64,000 bases of DNA from Escherichia phage 241. The position numbers and the translations under genes were made by a program. Where the stretch lies: the sequence record OR924452. One strand, given 5' to 3'. The notes under the pieces were generated by a model. That model was not told the DNA's origin, did not search any database, and saw only the letters and a list, made by a program, of their open reading frames with translations. Every line of letters starts with the position of its first letter. The stretch's first letter is position 1. Shown piece by piece: positions 20,211-59,447 of this stretch.

Positions 20211-20234
20211 ATGAAAAAGAGGCCGAAGCCTCTT
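20211..20234 (-). terminator. rho-independent terminator (AGAGGC-uucg-GCCUCU + UUUUU on minus strand)
   Basis: Stem-loop with U-run directly after stop of 20234..20455. Confidence 0.45.
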
Positions 20235-20455
20235 TAATCGTCATATTTGCCTGTCCTGAAATTCCATTTCCTGGCCTTGGATAGGTCAAGATCTTTGAAT
20301 ATATTACCGAAGATCTTTTTAAACCCTGACTCTTCTTCAAGATCTTTCGGTCTCTTGACAGGTTCTTGAACCATACCGCCTTCGGGTTTCCCCACATCAG
20401 CGGTAGTGGTGGCCGGAGCCGAAGAGTCTTCTAGGTAATCCTGGAAGCTCTTCAT
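20234..20455 (-). CDS. hypothetical protein (73 aa)
   Basis: ORF. Confidence 0.35.
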   Translation of the reverse strand: MKSFQDYLEDSSAPATTTADVGKPEGGMVQEPVKRPKDLEEESGFKKIFGNIFKDLDLSKARKWNFRTGKYDD

Positions 20456-40994: not shown

Positions 40995-41029
40995 AATTAG
41001 AACAACAAAGGGGCTTAATGCCCCTTTGT

Positions 41030-41488
41030 TTATTTCCCATCCCAAAAGTCGTCTTCATCGTCTACTTCATCAAACGCAGAATCCAATTCTGCGTCAGAGT
41101 ACTCTGGTAGACGACCATTCTGTTTCAGATATTCAATCTCGTCATCTTCCAATTGAAGATCCGTTGCTATAAACAGTGCTCCGGTCTCTTCATCATGTTC
41201 AATGCTATAAGACGTATATTCAGAACCTTGAACTGTAATGATGATAGATGTTGGATCTTCTGGATCCACGTGAGCTTCAAACGGGATACCGTCAATTGGG
41301 GCGTCTTCTAAGAATGTTGCAAGGGCTACGGCAGCGCGGACAACATCCGTGCCCTGTACCGATGCATAAATTTCTTCTGCACCCGTTTCCCCGCGCTCAA
41401 AGAATTCAATCGTAGTTCCGTCTTGAACCCCAGTCCAGATAGGCATATCTGCTGGTGTATCGGCTTCAAATAATTTTGAAATTGGCAT
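41030..41488 (-). CDS. hypothetical acidic protein (152 aa)
   Basis: ORF, Asp/Glu-rich. Confidence 0.4.
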   Translation of the reverse strand: MPISKLFEADTPADMPIWTGVQDGTTIEFFERGETGAEEIYASVQGTDVVRAAVALATFLEDAPIDGIPFEAHVDPEDPTSIIITVQGSEYTSYSIEHDEETGALFIATDLQLEDDEIEYLKQNGRLPEYSDAELDSAFDEVDDEDDFWDGK

Positions 41489-41523
41489 GTTCGTTTCCTC
41501 TATGGATAAACCTTATGGGATAT

Positions 41524-41973
41524 TTAGGCTTCTCTCTTCGCCAGCCCTGGTTTGAATACCACCATTTCTTCTACGTTATTGGCACTCATAGAGGCTATAG
41601 AATCGAACCCTTTGTTGACAAGTTCTTTCACATTATCATGTATCTTACCAGGCTTTATCCCCAACTCTCGCATTTTATTTTCCCACACCGAAACGTTATT
41701 AGAATCTATCACCAGAGTCTTCTTGGCCTTAACACGAAATGCCATGACAACAGGTTCACCAGATTGACGATAGCGAACGGCGTTTTCCGCGTAGATCTGC
41801 GCTTTTTCTGGATCCCCTGTCAGGTAAAATCCAGCACCCATCGTACCAGAGTCAGTCTGGCCAAATTTTTCAAAATCAAAGACGTCGAATTCAACATTCG
41901 ACCCATGATATAAAACAATATCCGTAAAATCGGGCAATGTTGATTCACGATAGAATTCTAGGAAGGTTTTCAT
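41524..41973 (-). CDS. hypothetical protein (149 aa); possible H-Y-E class ADP-ribosyltransferase-like fold
   Basis: YHGS ... GAGFY ... EEMVVF pattern resembles PARP/Tpt1/DarT-type motifs; preceded by the conserved late leader element. Confidence 0.4.
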   Translation of the reverse strand: MKTFLEFYRESTLPDFTDIVLYHGSNVEFDVFDFEKFGQTDSGTMGAGFYLTGDPEKAQIYAENAVRYRQSGEPVVMAFRVKAKKTLVIDSNNVSVWENKMRELGIKPGKIHDNVKELVNKGFDSIASMSANNVEEMVVFKPGLAKREA

Positions 41974-42007
41974 AGATACCCCACACTTGCTGTATGGGGT
42001 ATTTAGG
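41974..42007 (-). promoter_or_regulatory. conserved late leader element: CTAAATA + hairpin ATACCCCA...TGGGGTAT, then ATG
   Basis: Fourth copy (minus strand) of the element found upstream of three tail spike genes. Confidence 0.45.
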
Positions 42008-42012
42008 AGGGA

Positions 42013-43206
42013 TCAATCAGGGGTAAACTCGTTCACAGGAACTTGTTCCGGCATAGACAATTCGGGGCATGCTGCCTTCATTGGCTCAATATACGGCTTG
42101 CTACCAACAATCCAGAACAGAGCGTTTTCGTTGAGCAGTTCTGGCTTATGCTGTTGGATCCAGGTCATGACCTTGCCTTCATAGCGAGGATGCAACTCAA
42201 TATCGCCCCACTGGTAATCCATCAGGTCATTATAGCGAACCCAATTCGTTGTATGCAAATCCCAATGGTGTACTGCAAAGCGTGGGAGCGTTATCTCCGG
42301 CTCTCCCTTCTCGCGGATACCCATCAGGAGGCCAGCCAGCGAAACGCTCTTAGAGGCATGCTGAAGATCCTTCTTGCCGTACACATAATCTGGGTTGTCA
42401 TGATAGCAACGAGTAAAATCCGTTATGTGTGGAAGATTAGCTTGTTTTCCAATAATACGCAAACGGCTTTCAATAAAGTCCAGACGGTTGGGACCAATCC
42501 CGATCAGATATACATTTTTCAGATTCGGTTTCGGGTGCATAGCCAGCCCTGTCAAAATGCTGGTACAAGAATTACATGAACCAGCAGGAATGATCAGATC
42601 TGTGATATGGTCCGGAATGTTAGCAACCTGCTCGCCGCCCAGCATATGAAATCCTGCAATCCTCTCCGGAGAATGCAACGTATGATCCAGAGTGATCCCA
42701 TACTCTAGATAATATGCTTTTGGATTCTGCTGCTCAATCAATTTCTTGCAGCGCGGCTGGATAGTGCTGTTGTAACCCGAACCGACAAAGTTGAATTCGC
42801 TGCCGAACCATGCACTCATCTTAACCATATCGTGGTTCATACAGGTGGTTGGTTTGGTCGCGCCCAGGACTGTAGTTGTCTTGCCGCCGAAATGCCGTGA
42901 GACTGCTGTCGCCATAGGGGACTGCGGACTACCAACGACAGTACCATGGATAAGGTCTGGGGAGCCTCCGGCCTTGAGATGCTCAACCATGAGCCAGATG
43001 GCCTGACGAAGTTTACTGCCGTTGATGCCCTGCTTGCCATCTGTATAGTTGGACAGCGGCGCGAAGTAATCTTCACGCTTGAACCAGACCTGTTGATTGG
43101 TTTCAGGGTTGGCAACGAGTTCGCACGGGGTGTGCTTGTAGAGGTAGTCTTCCCAGTGGACCAGGTTGCGGTCGAGGGAAAGTGTATCGAAGATGGACTT
43201 GTTCAT
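42013..43206 (-). CDS. PLP-dependent enzyme, fold type II (Trp synthase beta / ACC deaminase-like)
   Basis: FKREDY...GSKLRQ (PLP-lysine region) and GTVVGSPQSP...TAVSRHFGG glycine loop match ACC deaminase/D-Cys desulfhydrase family. Confidence 0.55.
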   Translation of the reverse strand: MNKSIFDTLSLDRNLVHWEDYLYKHTPCELVANPETNQQVWFKREDYFAPLSNYTDGKQGINGSKLRQAIWLMVEHLKAGGSPDLIHGTVVGSPQSPMATAVSRHFGGKTTTVLGATKPTTCMNHDMVKMSAWFGSEFNFVGSGYNSTIQPRCKKLIEQQNPKAYYLEYGITLDHTLHSPERIAGFHMLGGEQVANIPDHITDLIIPAGSCNSCTSILTGLAMHPKPNLKNVYLIGIGPNRLDFIESRLRIIGKQANLPHITDFTRCYHDNPDYVYGKKDLQHASKSVSLAGLLMGIREKGEPEITLPRFAVHHWDLHTTNWVRYNDLMDYQWGDIELHPRYEGKVMTWIQQHKPELLNENALFWIVGSKPYIEPMKAACPELSMPEQVPVNEFTPD

Positions 43207-43275
43207 TCTATTTCTCCTGTAGACATTGGCTTATCATAGCGTATCTACAGGAGTATAGAAAAGGAGAATCTCGGG

Positions 43276-43944
43276 TTACTTGGTCAGAAAATCCATCAGG
43301 CGGCGGAAAAACGATTTGCGTTCTACTGGTTTCTTAGATTCAGGGACCGGAATAGAACTATCATATTTAACAACCGGAGCACCCTGATCGTTCAGAACAC
43401 GACTGGCTGGTGGAGTCGGCTTCAAAGATTTGATCGCCTGATTCAGATCGGAATTGTCCACAACACTCGCTTCTTCAGCCACAGAAACACACGGCTTGAT
43501 TAAAACAGATTTCTTAGACTGCTCATACTGATGAGCGATATCTAGATATTTCTTGCGCTCAGCGTAGAAATCGACGTTCTTAACTTTACGGCGGCGAGCA
43601 GTAGAACTCTCTTCACCATAAAAGTCATATCCATTTTTGAACATCCAATTCACTGCTTGCTCAAATGAATTGAATACCATATACAGGCCGCGCCGCCCGT
43701 TGACCATATCGTCTTCGCTGGAATAACCGATGAACACCGCTTGGCCTTTCTTGTTCAGATCAAATGGGGTGCAGACGCCCGTATCATCTAGGGAACGCGG
43801 TGCGAGGTGCCCGTCTCTGTAAATGTAAGCCGGATACAAGAACTCATTCAGAGTGCGCTTGTTGCCTTTATATGTGTACAGACGAGCAAATGGAGGCAGA
43901 TCACAAACAACATCATTGTAATCCCAGATTGTTACATTGCGCAT
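43276..43944 (-). CDS. hypothetical protein (222 aa)
   Basis: ORF. Confidence 0.4.
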   Translation of the reverse strand: MRNVTIWDYNDVVCDLPPFARLYTYKGNKRTLNEFLYPAYIYRDGHLAPRSLDDTGVCTPFDLNKKGQAVFIGYSSEDDMVNGRRGLYMVFNSFEQAVNWMFKNGYDFYGEESSTARRRKVKNVDFYAERKKYLDIAHQYEQSKKSVLIKPCVSVAEEASVVDNSDLNQAIKSLKPTPPASRVLNDQGAPVVKYDSSIPVPESKKPVERKSFFRRLMDFLTK

Positions 43945-46273: not shown

Positions 46274-46498
46274 TTATCCGTGCTTGTTCGCTTCAATTGC
46301 CCTTAATTGAGCATCAGCGTCAGCTTTGGTGTCATGTGTCCCAAGAACCTTCGTCTTGGTGTGGTCAAGGACAACCCACTTGTCGCCTCGCTTTTCAACA
46401 AACTCAACAATCTCTTTGTTGTCAGTAGCGAGGCCATCCCACTCAGCAAGAAACTCACCGAACGTTTTCATCATACTCACCAATCGTTTATTGAACAA
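46274..46498 (-). CDS. hypothetical protein (74 aa)
   Basis: ORF within tRNA island. Confidence 0.35.
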   Translation of the reverse strand: MFNKRLVSMMKTFGEFLAEWDGLATDNKEIVEFVEKRGDKWVVLDHTKTKVLGTHDTKADADAQLRAIEANKHG

Positions 46499-46591
46499 CT
46501 GGTTTATTTAGGTGCTCCCGAGGCGGTATTTTAATCCCGCGATCCCATCTCGCCTGTCGTAGACCGGAGCATGCTGACAGTCCAACATATT

Positions 46592-52770: not shown

Positions 52771-53961
52771 ATGGCCGATTTCCTGAGTCAATATACAGGT
52801 CAGCAGATAGATCAGATATTGGGTTCTGTTGACGACAAAGTAAGTAAAAACGACGTCATTGATGATTTTGAAGTCAGTGACCCATTGTTTCCGCCTTCTG
52901 CTCGCCTGACTTATGAGTTGAAAAGGTCTGTGGATACGATTAATGACACTCTGACCAACAAAGTTATAAGAACGGATAGTGGTGAACAGACAATCAACGG
53001 TAAGAAGACATTTAATGCGCTGTTGGTTACTAACGGGGGAATCCAAGTCCCCACTGGGAAATCTGTTTCAATCGCGGACGAACCAACCAACTCAACAGAC
53101 GGTGTCAACCTGAGTATGTTGAGGAAACATGGTGTCAGTGAAGACACCGCGCCAGATGGGTCTGGTTTGGCTGGGGAATTATTGACTTCCGGATATTACA
53201 AATTCAAACTGGATTTTAACAGATTGGCTGCGTATACGGAATTAACTCTCCCAACATCAGTTCCCGTGCAAACAGATTCTGGAGTTCGCACATGGTCAAT
53301 GACTGCATTTTTTAATGCGTTATTTGCCGACAACCGTTTTAACGGTTATGTAACGACGACCACGTATGATGCCGACATGTTGAGTCTGGAGTCTCAGCTT
53401 AACAATATCAACACGACGTTGAACGGAAAAGTCAACACGTCAACTTACAACACAAAAATGGCTTCGTTGGATTTGAGTATATCCAACATTAACACATCTT
53501 TGAGCAACAAGGTTGAGGTCAGCACATATAATACGAAGATGACTTCCTTGGACGGCAGTATCAGTTCTCTCACGACTGGTAAGGTCGATGTATCAACGTA
53601 TAATGCCAAAATGACCACAATTGATAACAGTTTGGGGAACGCTGTTTATCGCACCAAAACAAACTTGTCATCACTGACGGTATCGGCTTCTGGAACAACA
53701 GCTCTGCCAGACTTTGATTTGGTGAAACTTTGCCAGATATTGGTAACAGCACAATGGGGTACAGGAGATGTCGTAGACACATATCGAGTCACCATAACTC
53801 GAGATGGGACGATTAAGTCTGAGCTGCTGATCCAGAAAAGTACGAGCGGAACTGTGACGTTTACGGGTTCTGTAGTTGGTGGGAAACTGAGGATTTCTGT
53901 TGTCAATGCCAATACGACAACACCTTGCTCAGTCGATTATTCTATTACAGCATCTTTCTAA
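52771..53961 (+). CDS. tail fiber-like protein with internal tandem peptide repeats
   Basis: Three to four ~24-aa repeats (V.[TV]STYN.KM.S.D.S.S...) in central region; operon position between baseplate and tail spikes. Confidence 0.5.
   Translation: MADFLSQYTGQQIDQILGSVDDKVSKNDVIDDFEVSDPLFPPSARLTYELKRSVDTINDTLTNKVIRTDSGEQTINGKKTFNALLVTNGGIQVPTGKSVSIADEPTNSTDGVNLSMLRKHGVSEDTAPDGSGLAGELLTSGYYKFKLDFNRLAAYTELTLPTSVPVQTDSGVRTWSMTAFFNALFADNRFNGYVTTTTYDADMLSLESQLNNINTTLNGKVNTSTYNTKMASLDLSISNINTSLSNKVEVSTYNTKMTSLDGSISSLTTGKVDVSTYNAKMTTIDNSLGNAVYRTKTNLSSLTVSASGTTALPDFDLVKLCQILVTAQWGTGDVVDTYRVTITRDGTIKSELLIQKSTSGTVTFTGSVVGGKLRISVVNANTTTPCSVDYSITASF
53380..53650 (+). repeat. in-frame tandem repeats (~70-80 nt units) within fiber gene
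   Basis: Protein-level repeats read from the translation. Confidence 0.4.
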
Positions 53962-53963
53962 AA

Positions 53964-54007
53964 CTAAATACCCCTAGATGACATGAATACATTTAGGGGT
54001 ATTACAA
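53964..54007 (+). promoter_or_regulatory. conserved late leader element: CTAAATA + hairpin AATACCCCTA...TAGGGGTATT, then ATG
   Basis: One of four copies; 10-bp stem; ATG 4 nt after hairpin. Confidence 0.5.
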
Positions 54008-57000
54008 ATGGCCAACAAACCAACACAGCCTCTTTTCCCTTTGGGTTTAGAAACTTCGGAGTCTTCTAACATAAAAGGCTTCAACAACTCCGGCACCATA
54101 GAGCATTCCCCTGGTGCAATATTGACGTTCCCTGAAGATACTGATGTTGCGGGTCTTCCATCTTCTGTGCGTTACAATCCTGTTAGTGATGAATTCGAAG
54201 GTTATTACGAAAATGGCGGGTGGCTGTCTTTGGGCGGCGGTGGAATACGCTGGGAAACGCTCCCATACGCTCCCTCTAGCAATTTGTTAGAAGGGCGCGG
54301 CTATCTCATTAATAACTCCACTGGGACTTCTACGGTGGTTCTTCCTTCCCCTACGCGCGTTGGTGACTCGGTTACAATTTGTGATGCCTATGGTAAATTC
54401 GCGACGTACCCATTGACTGTATCTCCAGCGGGAAATAACCTGTACGGCTCCACCGAAGATATGACGATATCCACCGATAACGTGTCGGCGACTTTCACTT
54501 GGTCTGGTGCTGAGCAGGGTTGGGTTGTTACATCTGGTGTTGGCCTAGGTCAAGGTCGTGTGTACAGTCGAGAGATTTTCACTCAAATTTTAGCATCTGA
54601 TACAAATGAAGTGACTCTCAACATCCCTCCGACAATTGTGGACGTGTACACTGATGGGAAACGCCTTACAGAATCCAAATATTCTTTAAATGGAAACGTA
54701 ATCACTTTCGACCCTTCTTTACCTGCTGGCACTGAATTGCAGGTAATAGAATATACTCCGATTCAGTTAGGTACTGGCGGCGGGGGTTCGGGCGCTTCTG
54801 CAATCACCTGGATTTACAATGGCGGATCCGCTATCGGCGGCGAAACCGAAATAACGCTAGACATCGTTGTAGATGATGTTCCGGCTATTGATATAAACGG
54901 GTCTCGTCAGTACAAAAATCTTGGATTCACGTTCGACCCATTGACGAGTAAAATCACTCTGACGCAAGAACTGGAACCAGAAGATGAAGTTGTTGTGGTT
55001 ATAAATGGGACACCAAACATTTATAACCAGATCGATCGTTCTTTACAGGAAGTTGCTCGCGCCTACAATTTTACAAATGCTCAAGTTATTTTGAGCAACG
55101 ATTATACTTCTGCGCTGGATAATAAAGTCGTTATTTATGATACAACATCCCAACGTTCTTGGGGGATTCCATCTGGAATTCCAGCAGGTTCTACAGTGGT
55201 TTCCGTCAATGGGGATCAACTGAAATACAAAAATGGATCAACTGAAACCACTGTTACATTGGTGAGTGTACCAGGTAGTGCAGAGAAGTTGAAGAACGAT
55301 CTGGCGTCGAACTCTGGCGCGGGCATGTTGAAAACTTCTAGAGGTGATACCGTAGAAGAAGAATTGACTTTTATTAATCAGAATATGGTCGTTCAAATTT
55401 CAGATTTCGCGAGCCTTAGAACTTTAGTGCCAGCCACAGCGGGCATCCGAGTCAAATTGAAAGGTTATTATTCTGGTTCTGAAATTGGTGGCGGAGAATT
55501 CATTTCCGTCGCTGGTGATGCTGTTGATGATGCTGGGATGATTGCTCGAGTGTCAAGCAGCTTCTATTGGAAGAGAATTATCGACAAACATATTACTCCT
55601 GGTATGTATGGCATCAAAGGGAATCTTCCAGAAGATCCGGCAGTGAAACTGAACGCTATGTTTACGGCTGCGGCTGCGGCTAACGCTTATGTCTTACTGA
55701 ACGATGTCGATACTCTGGTCTGTAAAAGCCCTGTCGTGATCCCAGCACATTCATTAGTGTACGGCAACAAGCGGACCATATTGAAACGTGATGCATCGTT
55801 GTCATATGCTAATGATTTCTTGACAATTATGAATGATTCATATGTCAAGGGGATCTATGTTGATGGTAGCCGTTTAGATTCTCAGACTCCGCTAGAAGCA
55901 GTTTTGGTGCGCATCGCTGGGAATGTGACTATCCATAAGAGCGAGATCCGAAACAATGCTGGCTATGGCGTTGTTGGTAACGCAGTCCCTGGCATTCGTA
56001 TCACCAAGAACATTTTTTCCAACTTCGCCAAAGGTTGTGTGGCTATGTTTGGCGACGGAACGGCGACGAGTGATGATCTGCAAATTAATGATAACAGATT
56101 CTTTAACCTGGGCGCGGGAACCATTTATGTTGGCGGTTACTCAAACTTCCTTGTCGACAAAAACGTCGGAAGAGGCACTTACGTGGGTTCTCCAGGAAAC
56201 CGTCTGTATGTTGTGACCAATACCAACGGGACTATCACCCAAAGCGCTGGGCCAGATTTTGGGGCGCTGAAAACGGGTATGTTCTTTGTATTGCCTGGTG
56301 GTTCTGAACATATGATAACGGCAGTCAACAGCCTTACAAGTGTGACAGTAACCCCAGCGCCTCCGTCGAATGCAACGGTTCGTGCAATTGCTGGGACAGG
56401 GGATCTTCTGGGCATCCAATCATGCTCCTACGGCACCATCAGCCGTAACAACCTGACCGATTGTGTGACTTACGGAACTGGTGGAGGCACGATGGAGGGG
56501 AGCACTCTGGGGTGCAATTATGTCACTTGGGAAGACAACTTCATCCGCAACACAGGTAAGAACGGAATCAACGTCGGGCAATCAGGCGCTGGGGTCGCCA
56601 CGTGTTCAATCCTGAGGAACACTCTGATACAGGTTGGTAACGGCGGTCAGGGCGTCGGCCCAGCGTATCTTCTGCCTTGGTTCGATACGGTAGGTATTGC
56701 TCTGTATCAGGGAAATCCAGGTTATATGGCGAATATGGACGTCAGTGATAACAACGTCTCTACATGGTCTGGCGATCTGAATGACGGCGCTGCTTGGTTT
56801 GGTATGAGCGGTTGTACGGAAGCCACTGTGACTTGTACAGGCAACAAATCTTCTGGTTATTCCGACGGCTATGTTCGTGGAGATATATTAGAAGTCACGT
56901 TGACAGGTTATGGTACAGGGGCGGCTGCGACTTCATTCGTTAGTGATGGTGAGTCTATACAGATAACCGTTCAAACAGGTACTTCACCAACAGCTTCTCC

Positions 57001-57181
57001 TTATTTTTCAGTGCGGAAGGCGATCCGCACCCGCCATCAACCGATGATAACGGCGCAGATCGTCACCACAACTGGGAACATGTCTCATTGTTGGGGCATG
57101 CAATCTAGTACAGCAGGAAACTGGATGGTGGGACAGAATACAACTCCTTCAGGGGTCACGACGTATTACGCAAAAGGGTAA
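54008..57181 (+). CDS. tail spike protein with gp10-like N-terminal anchor domains and beta-helix domain (1057 aa)
   Basis: Beta-helix repeat signatures (NNAGYGVVGN..., IRNT...); N-terminal region shared with the 59448 gene. Confidence 0.6.
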   Translation: MANKPTQPLFPLGLETSESSNIKGFNNSGTIEHSPGAILTFPEDTDVAGLPSSVRYNPVSDEFEGYYENGGWLSLGGGGIRWETLPYAPSSNLLEGRGYLINNSTGTSTVVLPSPTRVGDSVTICDAYGKFATYPLTVSPAGNNLYGSTEDMTISTDNVSATFTWSGAEQGWVVTSGVGLGQGRVYSREIFTQILASDTNEVTLNIPPTIVDVYTDGKRLTESKYSLNGNVITFDPSLPAGTELQVIEYTPIQLGTGGGGSGASAITWIYNGGSAIGGETEITLDIVVDDVPAIDINGSRQYKNLGFTFDPLTSKITLTQELEPEDEVVVVINGTPNIYNQIDRSLQEVARAYNFTNAQVILSNDYTSALDNKVVIYDTTSQRSWGIPSGIPAGSTVVSVNGDQLKYKNGSTETTVTLVSVPGSAEKLKNDLASNSGAGMLKTSRGDTVEEELTFINQNMVVQISDFASLRTLVPATAGIRVKLKGYYSGSEIGGGEFISVAGDAVDDAGMIARVSSSFYWKRIIDKHITPGMYGIKGNLPEDPAVKLNAMFTAAAAANAYVLLNDVDTLVCKSPVVIPAHSLVYGNKRTILKRDASLSYANDFLTIMNDSYVKGIYVDGSRLDSQTPLEAVLVRIAGNVTIHKSEIRNNAGYGVVGNAVPGIRITKNIFSNFAKGCVAMFGDGTATSDDLQINDNRFFNLGAGTIYVGGYSNFLVDKNVGRGTYVGSPGNRLYVVTNTNGTITQSAGPDFGALKTGMFFVLPGGSEHMITAVNSLTSVTVTPAPPSNATVRAIAGTGDLLGIQSCSYGTISRNNLTDCVTYGTGGGTMEGSTLGCNYVTWEDNFIRNTGKNGINVGQSGAGVATCSILRNTLIQVGNGGQGVGPAYLLPWFDTVGIALYQGNPGYMANMDVSDNNVSTWSGDLNDGAAWFGMSGCTEATVTCTGNKSSGYSDGYVRGDILEVTLTGYGTGAAATSFVSDGESIQITVQTGTSPTASPYFSVRKAIRTRHQPMITAQIVTTTGNMSHCWGMQSSTAGNWMVGQNTTPSGVTTYYAKG

Positions 57182-57191
57182 TATTGAATGC

Positions 57192-57231
57192 CTAAATACC
57201 CCATATTGGACATCCTTTATGGGGTATTATC
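57192..57231 (+). promoter_or_regulatory. conserved late leader element: CTAAATA + hairpin ATACCCCATA...TATGGGGTAT, then ATG
   Basis: Near-identical to the 59405 copy. Confidence 0.5.
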
Positions 57232-59235
57232 ATGATTTCTCAATTCAATCAGCCACACGGCTCCACTTCAATATTTGTTAACAAACAATCTATCGCTCTG
57301 AATTTCGGTGTCACCAAAGACGAAGTTGTTTATTTCGCTGCTGGCATTGACCTTAGCGGATACAAAGTAATCTATGATGAATCGACTCAACGGGCTTATT
57401 CTCTTCCAGCTGGGATTGTTTCAGGAACTACTGCCATCAGTCTGGACGAAAAAGCCATTTTGACCCATTCGGCTGGCTCTGTTGATCTTGGAGAACTGGC
57501 TGTGCAACGCGGAGAGTTTGTTACTGTACCTGGTTCTTTTAATTTCGGCCATACCATTAATGTGAAAAATGAACTTCTTGTTCACGATGATGAAAAATAT
57601 CGATGGGATGGTTCTTTGCCAAAGGTAGTTGCCGCTGGTTCTACACCCGATAACTCAGGCGGTGTTGGCACAGGCGCGTGGGTTAGCGTTGGGGATGCGT
57701 CATTAAGGAATGAGTTAGCAAGTCCTTCAGGATCATCACTTTCAGGTCATTCAAATGGCCTTTCGGTAGCTGAAAACCTGAATAACCTCTTAGCAAAAGC
57801 ACAATTCATCACACCAGAGCAATTTTACAGCAATCATCCTGGTGAAACTGACTGGGCTGTGATGATTAACGAGGCATATTCCTATGCTCGCGATCATAAT
57901 AGTTCTGTGTTGCTTGCTAATGACTACCACACTGCGTCAACAATTGTTCACTTAGACGGTGTTACTGTTATTTGTACCGGGCGTATTATTGCATCGCCAA
58001 CAGGAACATATTCATACACCACCGCATTAGGTAATGAAGAGGAGGCTGCTTATGTAATTACTACTGAAAATGGTGTGTTTAACAATGCAAAATCTTCATC
58101 TCTTTACGGTCTAACATTGACATATACAGACAATAGAGAACCATCAGGATATACCGACCCTCACATACTAGCTAAAGGCGTTGTCATTACTGATACGGCT
58201 AATGTTTACATAAACAACCTGCAAACATTTGGGTTCTTAAATGGCGGTGTCGATGTTGGTGGAATTTCTGGTAATGGGTTTGAGATTGTAATAAATAAAT
58301 GTTTAGCCTGGATTTACGCATGGACGGATTCGGAGAAGATAGGATTCCGATGCAACGTTACAGACTCTACATTCTATGATGTCGTAACTGTAGCATATGG
58401 AATTGGAATTCATAATGTTAAAGGTGGTGGAAACGTCTATTTTAACGCGCACCCATGGGGGTATCCTTTAACCGCCGCTAATCTATACCCAAACAGACAG
58501 TGTAAAATTCAATTTCTGTTAACAGGGGGTGGCACAACTTTCTTCAGGCCGTATGCCGATACAATCACAAAATTAGACAGCAGTCAAAACGCTAGTCGGG
58601 CCAATGGTGGTGTTGGGTTTTACATCGACAACTGGAGAAATAAAATTATCGCAGCAGAGGTGGCGATACATAATGATGAGATTAGCACTGGAATGTCATT
58701 AGCTTACCTGGTAGGCGATGCCTCGCGTAATGAAATTGAATTCACAAACATAAACAACACATCGAAACTTGGGAATGAAAGAGTTTCATATGATTCAGGA
58801 TATCAAACCGCTTTATTTACAAACATTGTCAGAATTCCTGAGTATAACGCAGGTAATTTAAGCAACCTTACAGGAAGCATATCATTCAATGGTACAGGAG
58901 TTACTTCTTCTGGCACGTACAGTTTACGCAGAAGTGGTGAGTATATAGACATTCTTTTAACTATAGGAGTGACTTCAATATCAAGCCCATCCGGACCATT
59001 ATCAATCACGCTACCACGTGGTCTTGTGTGTAGATTTGGGCCATCAGCAGAGCCTGAGCAGACTTCGTGCTTTGGTAACATCAGTTCAATCAATATAGGT
59101 GTAATTGCAGTTCTAAACGGAAGCTCTATAGAGTTCTATTACAAGACAGCAAATGGGGCAAGGGTCCTTATTAATGCAGCTGGAGTATCAGTCGGGACTC
59201 TTGAGTTATTTTTAAGAGGTAAAATTTCGAATTAA
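57232..59235 (+). CDS. tail spike protein (667 aa) with conserved N-terminal head-binding module
   Basis: N-terminal ~170 aa parallel the 61724 gene (GSTS...SGYKVIYD...RAY[SA]LP...GAW[VI]S[VA]G.ASLRN.LA). Confidence 0.6.
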   Translation: MISQFNQPHGSTSIFVNKQSIALNFGVTKDEVVYFAAGIDLSGYKVIYDESTQRAYSLPAGIVSGTTAISLDEKAILTHSAGSVDLGELAVQRGEFVTVPGSFNFGHTINVKNELLVHDDEKYRWDGSLPKVVAAGSTPDNSGGVGTGAWVSVGDASLRNELASPSGSSLSGHSNGLSVAENLNNLLAKAQFITPEQFYSNHPGETDWAVMINEAYSYARDHNSSVLLANDYHTASTIVHLDGVTVICTGRIIASPTGTYSYTTALGNEEEAAYVITTENGVFNNAKSSSLYGLTLTYTDNREPSGYTDPHILAKGVVITDTANVYINNLQTFGFLNGGVDVGGISGNGFEIVINKCLAWIYAWTDSEKIGFRCNVTDSTFYDVVTVAYGIGIHNVKGGGNVYFNAHPWGYPLTAANLYPNRQCKIQFLLTGGGTTFFRPYADTITKLDSSQNASRANGGVGFYIDNWRNKIIAAEVAIHNDEISTGMSLAYLVGDASRNEIEFTNINNTSKLGNERVSYDSGYQTALFTNIVRIPEYNAGNLSNLTGSISFNGTGVTSSGTYSLRRSGEYIDILLTIGVTSISSPSGPLSITLPRGLVCRFGPSAEPEQTSCFGNISSINIGVIAVLNGSSIEFYYKTANGARVLINAAGVSVGTLELFLRGKISN

Positions 59236-59404: not shown

Positions 59405-59447
59405 CTAAATACCCCATATTGGCAAATCCTTTATGGGGTATTTTCAA
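59405..59447 (+). promoter_or_regulatory. conserved late leader element: CTAAATA + hairpin ATACCCCATA...TATGGGGTAT, then ATG
   Basis: Near-identical to the 57192 copy. Confidence 0.5.

Follow-up and report, generated by a model that had tools for sequence, protein, structure and literature searches.

This locus raises the question of what is done, and when, by a 149-aa protein encoded on the minus strand of a 64,000-nt stretch of DNA from Escherichia phage 241 (sequence record OR924452; 'the window' below is this whole stretch). A reading made from the letters alone had described a late-expressed protein with His-Tyr-Glu motifs of the ADP-ribosyltransferase (ART) type that could be packaged in the virion and injected; it gave no strand for the gene. 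The source phage is a Kuttervirus (Ackermannviridae, Vi01-like), and over window positions 41000-43300 its sequence has 98% identity to both Escherichia phage ECML-4 and Salmonella phage Maynard. Orthologues of the ART protein are Maynard_27 (annotated 'hypothetical protein'), Vi01_183, LIMEstone1 ORF173 and Sajous1 gp116. The answer judged probable here is that the protein is an ADP-ribosyltransferase that is made late, carried in the virion and delivered with the DNA to modify a host macromolecule. The best supported role is that of a mono-ADP-ribosyltransferase delivered with the DNA, which Iyer et al. proposed for the family by analogy with T4 Alt.

The first step is the assignment of the protein to an enzyme family. 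Pfam ART-PolyVal (PF18760) matches residues 19-143 with 43.2 bits against a gathering threshold of 31.2 (E 8.4e-11), and DUF3990, a family of the ART clan, scores 32.7 against a threshold of 32.2. PHROGs places the protein in a family of unknown function, an NCBIfam scan of it gave no match and PADLOC returned only weak N-terminal matches to the candidate systems PDC-M13, M42 and M10, which are not counted as evidence of a defence role. An AlphaFold2 model computed from 21 orthologues (59-98% identity) has a predicted local distance difference test (pLDDT) score of 78 and a predicted template modelling (pTM) score of 0.74, with low confidence only at residues 4-11 and 39-48. The model matches PARPs, diphtheria toxin and other ADP-ribosyltransferases and thus has the ART fold, the outcome on which the sequence-only reading had staked its structural claim. 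The 50 best BFVD matches listed comprise polyvalent proteins and fusions to MuF or virion RNA polymerase; Alt, ModA and ModB are not named among these 50, and the Pfam scan of the ART protein contains no Alt-type family.

Homology was searched at increasing depth. A word-indexed search returned orthologues only, all with the same Pfam domains. Searched exhaustively with a profile, 1.84 billion representatives yielded 1,329 relatives, and the best 150 of these are mostly proteins of 500-7,300 aa with the domain embedded and in a few cases stand-alone proteins of 140-160 aa. Against solved structures, neither the single sequence nor the orthologue profile found anything relevant. A family-wide profile of 38 sequences reached PARP4 (E 5.7e-4), exotoxin A (0.01-0.02), PARP12 and diphtheria toxin (0.023) and tankyrases. 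The earlier comparison of the His-Tyr-Glu layout to PARP, DarT and Tpt1 enzymes therefore divides: the PARP part is supported by fold and family profile, and no family-level sequence match or close fold match to DarT or Tpt1 (KptA) was obtained. Together, sequence profiles and the predicted model support a small NAD+-dependent ADP-ribosyltransferase of the His-Tyr-acid (PARP/diphtheria-toxin) clade, as a stand-alone member of ART-PolyVal.

The motifs first noticed in the 149-aa translation are present as described, with YHGS at residues 22-25, GAGFY at 46-50 (20 residues between) and EEMVVF at 135-140. In the 21 orthologues, H23, G24, S25, G46, G48, F49, Y50, Y61, G122, D124, S125 and E136 are invariant, and E135 is variable. 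Across 60 near-full-length distant domains, conservation reaches 100% for H23, 97% for G24, 98% for Ser or Thr at position 25, 92% for Y50, 90% for Y61, 100% for G122, 98% for D124 and 80% for E136. The strand-1 His lies within an HG[ST] motif (H23-G24-S25), and the strand-2 Tyr is followed about 11 residues later by a second aromatic residue, Y50 and Y61 being aligned by profile with exotoxin A and diphtheria toxin. In the PARP4 profile alignment, GYDS (122-125) corresponds to the PARP4 'GYDSV' and E136 to the last Glu of 'FEDDEFVVY', that is, to the 'DDE' catalytic-Glu motif of PARP4, which places E136 by alignment at the start of the penultimate core strand, as expected of the catalytic Glu. 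H23, Y50, Y61, D124 and E136 are thus candidate catalytic residues. Residue conservation and the PARP4 alignment support the His-Tyr-Glu reading, with the caveat that the paper which defined the family (Iyer et al. 2017, PMC5512222) gives its triad as His of strand 1, Tyr of strand 2 and Asp of strand 5 and places it with the Tox-ART-HYD2 clade. D124 is the only near-universal Asp, and the PARP4 alignment puts GYDS one strand before the classical Glu, E136.

The same conservation bears on the suggestion that the protein is a catalytically dead ART fold with only a structural or binding role. Pseudo-enzymes typically lose their NAD+-binding and catalytic residues, but here all of the residues expected to serve these functions are invariant in the orthologues and highly conserved at 20-30% family identity, and this suggestion is considered very improbable. 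The likeness to PARPs, diphtheria toxin and exotoxin A extends over the HG[ST] motif, Y[FL][ST] and another Tyr 11 positions further on, the strand with GYDS and the Glu of E-x-V-V-[FY]. Unlike those proteins, the window domain is far smaller and lacks regulatory, helical or receptor-binding domains, and its sequence similarity to them is detected only by means of a family profile (E about 1e-3 to 1e-2).

The nature of the target is the next question. The closest folds (PARPs, diphtheria toxin, exotoxin A and AcrF11) modify proteins, but for other members of this clade the substrate is RNA, DNA, an antibiotic or NAD+ itself. It is conceivable that the target is a nucleic acid, as for DarT, Tpt1 and PARP10-type enzymes, that the enzyme breaks down NAD+ as RES toxins do or that it is linked to thymidine hypermodification, a role raised by its adjacency to a gene for an enzyme that depends on pyridoxal phosphate (PLP). 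That neighbour appears to resemble the ViI gp226-type PLP enzyme, and ViI gp226 is one of five ViI genes sufficient for reconstitution of 5-(2-aminoethoxy)methyl-dU (5-NeOmdU). The reconstitution did not need the ART gene, however, so a hypermodification role is judged unlikely, and the adjacency carries little weight because the gene order is conserved across the phage family. The ART gene also has its own putative late promoter, its product is found in virions and its strongest sequence and fold matches are to the protein-modifying PARPs, diphtheria toxin and exotoxin A. These alternatives to a protein target are, taken together, regarded as unlikely.

Evidence for presence in the virion comes from published proteomes, in which orthologues were detected in both LIMEstone1 and Sajous1, in line with the packaging that had been proposed from the sequence. 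Electrospray tandem mass spectrometry of LIMEstone1 identified ORF173 (17.33 kDa) and ORF174 (16.62 kDa), the latter orthologous to the acidic protein encoded next to the ART gene, as 'confirmed structural proteins', with one peptide and about 12% coverage each, and according to its authors each of the 12 unknown structural proteins has a structural counterpart in ViI. In CsCl-purified Sajous1 virions, the ART orthologue gp116 has 10 spectra, the acidic gp115 has 31, gp119 has 16 and gp120 has 4. Vi01_183 and Vi01_184 are labelled 'phage associated protein', as are Vi01_179/180, and most neighbours (Vi01_177-178, 181-182 and 185c-189c) are each a 'putative uncharacterised protein'; the label is read here as marking virion proteins. 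Several GenBank orthologues carry the name '(putative) structural protein' as a result of virion detection. Both the promoter motif and the virion proteomes thus give the protein the late-gene and virion context of ART-PolyVal domains, and its presence in purified virions makes it probable that it enters the host with the DNA and modifies a target there.

An enzyme that acts late in the producing cell, on host or phage proteins or in assembly or lysis, could also be detected in virions by carry-over. The LIMEstone1 proteome, which contributes a single ORF173 peptide, also lists DNA ligase, rIIB, PhoH and gp44, and that of Sajous1 lists low-count DNA-associated and miscellaneous proteins, with a warning from the authors that low counts may represent contamination. 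Carry-over would have to account, however, for detection in two phages, one of them purified on CsCl, as well as for the Vi01 label and for the fact that nearly all relatives of the ART protein are domains of virion-packaged proteins. It also leaves the conserved, unstructured N-terminal MKTF unexplained and is considered doubtful, about as improbable as a target other than protein.

That N-terminus offers a possible route into the head. In T4, the internal-protein sequence MKTYQEFIAE sends whatever protein is fused to it into the prohead, where a single cleavage removes it (PMC8442874). The first ten residues of the ART protein, MKTFLEFYRE, are identical to it at 6 of 10 positions and similar at all 10. 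Residues 1-4 (MKTF) are invariant in the orthologues and L5 nearly so, the residues after these vary and residues 4-11 are unstructured in the AlphaFold2 model (pLDDT <50). In a composite genome formed by ECML-4 and the window (about 2% divergent), only 2 of 1,809 open reading frames (ORFs) with a Met start have at least six identities to the T4 peptide, namely the ART gene (6/10) and a 65-aa ORF (7/10). The search pattern MK-x-[FY]-x-[EDQ]-[FY]-x-x-[ED], which the T4 sequence satisfies and which has a background of 4.4e-5 per residue, is found at the start of four ORFs of the genome, and no ORF begins with it in 30 triplet-shuffled genomes. These four are the ART gene, the 65-aa ORF, a 73-aa ORF and the gene for Sajous1 gp215, a virion protein with 32 spectra. 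The 65-aa ORF is unannotated in Maynard, the C-terminal two-thirds of its product are homologous to many T4-like phage proteins (phrog_3684) and the product could be head cargo resembling the internal proteins. Stand-alone distant homologues of the ART protein begin with MKTFEQFLKE (SRR5431744_6453), MKTFLEYITE and MLTFEAYLAE.

The T4 prohead protease prefers L/I-x-E. Leu occupies P3 of the predicted site in many orthologues (LKE, LRE or LQE), where the window phage has Tyr. The acidic protein next to it has an invariant L6-F7-E8, and genes for the prohead protease, core and scaffold are present. The sequence likeness of MKTFLEFYRE suggests packaging into the head and cleavage by the prohead protease after E10. 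A broader proposal is that Ackermannviridae load head cargo by a peptide of the T4-internal-protein type (MK-x-F-x-E-F/Y-x-x-E), with the ART protein, the 189-aa Sajous1 gp215 and two mini-proteins as the cargo set, and that the ART protein is injected and disables a host function or defence through ADP-ribosylation. As a joint claim this is tentative and is rated below the delivery of the enzyme as such. None of six ART peptide strings was found in the part of Sajous1 Supplementary Table S3 that was available. In comparison with T4 IPI-IPIII, a similar N-terminal decapeptide, the virion presence and a phage-encoded T4-type prohead protease, core and scaffold are shared; unlike them, the window protein is an acidic enzyme rather than a small basic DNA-associated protein, and its P3 residue is neither Ile nor Leu.

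The time of synthesis is addressed by the leader of the gene. Between the stop codon of the PLP gene and the ATG of the ART gene there is a 39-nt gap on the minus strand, tccCTAAATACCCCATACagcaaGTGTGGGGTATctATG, in which CTAAATACCCC is found. With at most one mismatch, CTAAATACCCC occurs at five sites in the window against 0.75 expected, a number reached in 0 of 100 shuffles, and all five are correctly oriented, before the ART gene, the acidic gene and three tail-spike genes. The motif 'CTAAATAcCcc' has been described as characteristic of Viunalikevirus genomes (PMC7283392), and a site listed there for phage EspM4VN (53611-53621) lies directly upstream of the ART orthologue (53100-53588). In the LIMEstone1 record, ORF173 and ORF174 each have a 'putative late promoter' marked immediately upstream. 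ViI-like phages encode homologues of T4 gp55, gp33 and gp45 (Kutter et al., 2011), and Sajous1 gp22 is annotated as 'late promoter transcription factor'. A TATAAATA-like box, CTAAATA, is thus present at the locus and homologues of gp55 and gp33 are present in the phage group, as a T4-type late promoter would require, and by this analogy the ART gene would be transcribed late and from a start just past the box.

The putative promoter of the ART gene overlaps the 5' arm of a predicted hairpin. The 3' arm of this hairpin contains GGGG (41979-41982), the ribosome-binding site as annotated in Maynard. RNA read through from upstream folds with -18.1 kcal/mol (z -2.97), and for RNA that starts inside the 5' arm no structure is predicted (-0.6 kcal/mol). 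T4 late transcripts start about 6-7 nt after the box, and with this spacing a late transcript would begin inside the 5' arm. In T4, early read-through transcripts of the genes e, soc, 49 and I-TevI hide the ribosome-binding site, which late transcripts, starting inside the hairpin, leave accessible. The ART leader shares with them a TATAAATA-like CTAAATA box inside the 5' arm of a stable predicted hairpin, a 3' arm that covers the Shine-Dalgarno sequence and a predicted inability of RNA starting about 6-7 nt past the box to form the stem. It differs in that some copies resemble intrinsic terminators, with a T-run after the stem, and in that the element is a cassette at seven or more genes of this genome. 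On this analogy, the arrangement of T4 genes e, soc and 49 is the most economical reading of the ART leader.

The element is shared with tail-spike genes, as the sequence-only reading had stated: CTAAATACCCC with an inverted repeat stands before the ART gene and before three tail-spike genes, so that four of the five promoter sites in the window are followed by an inverted repeat, which ends 2-5 nt before the ATG. A whole-genome scan, made piecewise on the composite genome, found the box with an exact inverted repeat before the ART gene, the three tail-spike genes, a lysozyme-like gene and two further genes. The leaders of the ART gene, the three tail-spike genes and those at ECML-4 12684 and 118199 fold with -18 to -20 kcal/mol (z -3 to -5), a range into which the LIMEstone1 and Menlow ART leaders also fall; the leader before the lysozyme-like gene is weak (-13.9 kcal/mol, z -1.3). 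The paralogous arms differ in sequence and are nonetheless exactly complementary (ACCCAT/ATGGGT, ACCCCAT/ATGGGGT, ACCCCCAA/TTGGGGGT and ACCCCTA/TAGGGGT), and the arms CCCCTA/TAGGGG of the leader at 53964-54007 are a compensatory difference from those of the ART leader. Pairing is supported because the 3' arm of each copy complements its own, differing 5' arm. The ART stem is kept in 10 other phages (four genera plus unclassified members), with one pairing-compatible A-to-G change in RPN242, and its 5-nt loop varies among them (AGCAA, AATCC or AACCA).

Taken together, these observations suggest the following course of events. A gp55-type late promoter, CTAAATACCCC, in the 39-nt gap would limit expression of the ART gene to late infection. 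Since the promoter sequence would form the 5' arm of the 11-bp hairpin and the 3' arm covers the ribosome-binding site, read-through from the upstream, presumably earlier, PLP gene would be translationally silent or terminated, and late transcripts starting inside the 5' arm would leave the ribosome-binding site free. The protein would enter the virion, probably the head, by means of its N-terminal decapeptide, and the prohead protease would cut after E10. Released with the DNA into the next host, it would ADP-ribosylate a host macromolecule at the very start of infection, with a defence protein or the machinery of transcription or translation as candidate targets. Of these elements, the analysis itself shows the fold, the family, the conserved catalytic residues, the promoter motif and the hairpin, and published work shows the presence in virions; the late timing, the transcription start, the head location with cleavage, the injection, the enzymatic activity and the target are inferred.

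A number of points count against this course of events. The catalytic acid is ambiguous between D124 and E136 in view of the His-Tyr-Asp triad of Iyer et al., and no study reporting activity of any ART-PolyVal member was found in the literature. The late timing and the start site rest on the T4 analogy because no transcript mapping was found for Kuttervirus or this phage group. The hairpin may terminate transcription rather than mask the ribosome-binding site, since several leader hairpins are followed by T-runs and the Menlow record annotates the ART hairpin as a terminator; expression would be late-only under both variants. The likeness to the capsid-targeting sequence spans no more than 10 residues, proteins often begin with MK and the search pattern was drawn up with the sequences already in view; Glu or Asp is missing at position 10 of some orthologues, and the ART protein is acidic (isoelectric point (pI) 5.5) in contrast to the basic T4 internal proteins. 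The one-peptide basis of the LIMEstone1 detection and the non-structural proteins found in virion proteomes (DNA ligase, rIIB and PhoH, for example) belong here as well. Finally, the ART gene of Dickeya phage Ds3CZ (1300-1765 in the segment analysed) is frameshifted in the GTMGPGFY region, and those of Ds25CZ and Escherichia phage Sa157lw are matched as two pieces. Unless sequencing errors account for this, some lineages can do without the gene, at least those Dickeya phages.

Comparison with known systems helps to place the protein. With the ART-PolyVal domains of PMC5512222 it shares the motifs YHG[TS], GxGFY[LF]T, A..YA, G[YH]D[GS] and E.VVF, a phage late-gene or virion context and the prediction of an effector delivered with the DNA. 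It differs in being a stand-alone protein of 149 aa, the others lying within multidomain polyvalent proteins of 1,000-7,000 aa; embedding in a large polyvalent protein is an architectural habit and not a requirement of the Pfam domain. Its possible packaging signal is a short N-terminal peptide of the T4 type, in place of fusion to MuF, portal or virion RNA polymerase. T4 Alt has a mass of about 75 kDa, in contrast to 16.8 kDa for the window protein. Alt resembles it as the product of a late gene of a T4-related myovirus that is present in virions and presumed to be injected at the onset of infection. Unlike the His-Tyr-Glu/Asp protein of the window, however, Alt belongs to the R-S-E clade (Iyer et al.), and the two have no family-level homology; the window protein is filed by this comparison as a functional analogue, not a homologue, of Alt. 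ViI-like phages are without alt and modA homologues and without middle-mode regulators (Kutter et al., 2011).

A further small phage enzyme, which differs in having no detectable sequence relationship to the ART protein, is AcrF11, and nothing in the window data points to a CRISPR target. AcrF11 is an ADP-ribosyltransferase active against the type I-F CRISPR complex; to our knowledge, it has not been reported in virions.

The assignment of the enzyme is not new. The UniRef cluster is named 'ART-PolyVal-like domain-containing protein', the term 'ADP-ribose transferase' appears in one GenBank record only (SeF6a) and Supplementary Table S2 of a 2024 paper on a Vi01-like phage assigns 'NAD+ ADP-ribosyltransferase activity' to the FrontPhageNews orthologue, which the main text does not discuss. 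Conflicting labels include 'GIY-YIG catalytic domain protein' (vB_SentM_sal1), 'putative N-acetyltransferase' (Gloob) and 'ParB C-terminal domain' (FKP10). The presence in virions and the late promoter had already appeared in print in 2012, with no function attached, and none of the retrieved papers naming both Ackermannviridae and ADP-ribosylation appears to concern the ART protein. New here are the assembly of these dispersed findings into one picture, the alignment of E136 with the PARP catalytic Glu, the promoter-in-hairpin reading and the capsid-targeting hypothesis.

Phage therapy and biocontrol make wide use of Kuttervirus phages and their relatives (Vi01, CBA120, LIMEstone and the Klebsiella Taipeivirus phages). 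A conserved enzyme of the PARP/diphtheria-toxin type carried in the virion is a concrete candidate for what first acts on the host once the DNA has entered, or for an anti-defence factor that is injected. If the broader cargo proposal is true, a phage group described as lacking Alt and Mod has independently recruited an injected ADP-ribosyltransferase of another clade, and domains of giant polyvalent effectors also exist as free-standing, peptide-addressed capsid cargo. The ART protein is a tractable single-domain representative of ART-PolyVal, its small size easing target identification and structural work, and the capsid-targeting likeness suggests a testable packaging rule that, as with T4, could be reused for foreign cargo. 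A toxin-like enzyme in therapeutic particles is relevant to safety files; nothing suggests that it acts on eukaryotic cells. The features on which the analysis draws are collected in Table 1.

Table 1. Features of the ART locus and related elements (window coordinates unless another genome is named)
Feature	Position	Strand	Basis or remark
ART-PolyVal coding sequence, 149 aa	41524..41973	minus	ORF and homology
Putative capsid-targeting sequence MKTFLEFYRE, codons 1-10	41944..41973	minus	resembles T4 MKTYQEFIAE
CTAAATACCCC, Viunalikevirus motif, putative gp55-type late promoter	41996..42006	minus	23 nt upstream of ART ATG
Putative hairpin ATACCCCATAC-AGCAA-GTGTGGGGTAT, 11 bp	41976..42002	minus	5' arm overlaps promoter
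Second putative promoter copy, CTAAATATCCC	41517..41527	minus	before acidic gene; no hairpin; ordinary GAGGA ribosome-binding site
Promoter and hairpin leader	53964..54007	plus	before tail-spike gene 54008-57181; -19.1 kcal/mol, z -4.56
Promoter and hairpin leader	57192..57231	plus	before tail-spike gene 57232-59235; -19.6 kcal/mol, z -3.28
Promoter and hairpin leader	59405..59447	plus	before third tail-spike gene; -18.8 kcal/mol, z -4.24
65-aa ORF, MKTFGEFLAE	46274..46471	minus	CTAAATA box 46505-46511 (-); GGTGAG ribosome-binding site
73-aa ORF, MKSFQDYLED	20234..20455	minus	N-terminal pattern
189-aa ORF, MKPFIEYFKE, Sajous1 gp215	ECML-4 154788-155360		N-terminal pattern
Terminator-like hairpin	41004..41030	both (scan)	Maynard terminator annotated at the same place
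Acidic protein, 152 aa, pI 4.05	41030..41488	minus	orthologues Vi01_184, LIMEstone1 ORF174, Sajous1 gp115
PLP-dependent enzyme, 397 aa	42013..43206	minus	Pfam PALP, just under threshold
Basic protein, 222 aa	43276..43944	minus	sub-threshold Pfam NDUS4 (NADH dehydrogenase Fe-S protein 4 fold), E 2.9e-4
Gene block: 78-aa; 172-aa 'tail needle knob'-like; 222-aa; 397-aa PLP-dependent enzyme; ART; 152-aa very acidic		minus	order of genes

The ART gene is the fifth of six in its minus-strand block. An overlapping plus-strand ORF (41455-41913) was rejected as a real gene, as homology, annotation and conservation all lie in the minus-strand frame. The order PLP enzyme, ART and acidic protein is kept in Kuttervirus, Agtrevirus, Limestonevirus, Taipeivirus and unclassified members. 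The acidic gene is presumably co-transcribed with the ART gene, and the terminator-like hairpin closes this unit, opposite which lie convergent plus-strand genes and the DNA polymerase gene. The 152-aa acidic protein has 40 acidic and 6 basic residues, L6-F7-E8 is invariant in its orthologues and a predicted-fold search with it gave no usable match; it could be a partner, an inhibitor or a DNA mimic.

Several observations concern copies of the leader elsewhere. The mechanically called ORF start of the third tail-spike gene, ATG 59433 (+), falls inside the 3' arm of the leader hairpin; ATG 59448, 5 nt past the stem as with the other leaders, is the more likely start. Outside the window, the cassette occurs at ECML-4 10355 (-), 12684 (+) and 118199 (+), where it precedes the counterpart of a tail-associated lysozyme (Sajous1 annotation) and two hypothetical genes. 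Two of the ECML-4 copies are followed by TTTTT and look like combined terminator-promoter modules, which could aid the modular exchange of tail-spike genes.

The surroundings of distant stand-alone homologues were also inspected. Viral-contig scans with two of them yielded one locus of 23% identity for one and none for the other and were uninformative. The contigs that carry them are 637 bp and 10 kb long; on the 10-kb contig, a TAAATAACCCATA box stands upstream of the homologue, and neither an acidic partner nor a PLP gene was found. On metagenomic contig SRR5431744_6453 (5200-5260), which has neither a PLP gene nor a gene for an acidic protein as neighbour, a stand-alone homologue of about 49% identity is preceded by a terminator and TAAATAACCCATATAAC. 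This sequence is close to the Ackermannviridae box, and a small hairpin at the same place holds GGAG in its loop.

Annotations of the genes upstream of the ART gene vary. In some records, the PLP neighbour is annotated as threonine ammonia-lyase, threonine dehydratase or ACC deaminase. For FrontPhageNews, the entry just before the PLP gene appears in the 2024 supplementary table as 'NADH dehydrogenase', and this is probably the orthologue of the 222-aa protein.

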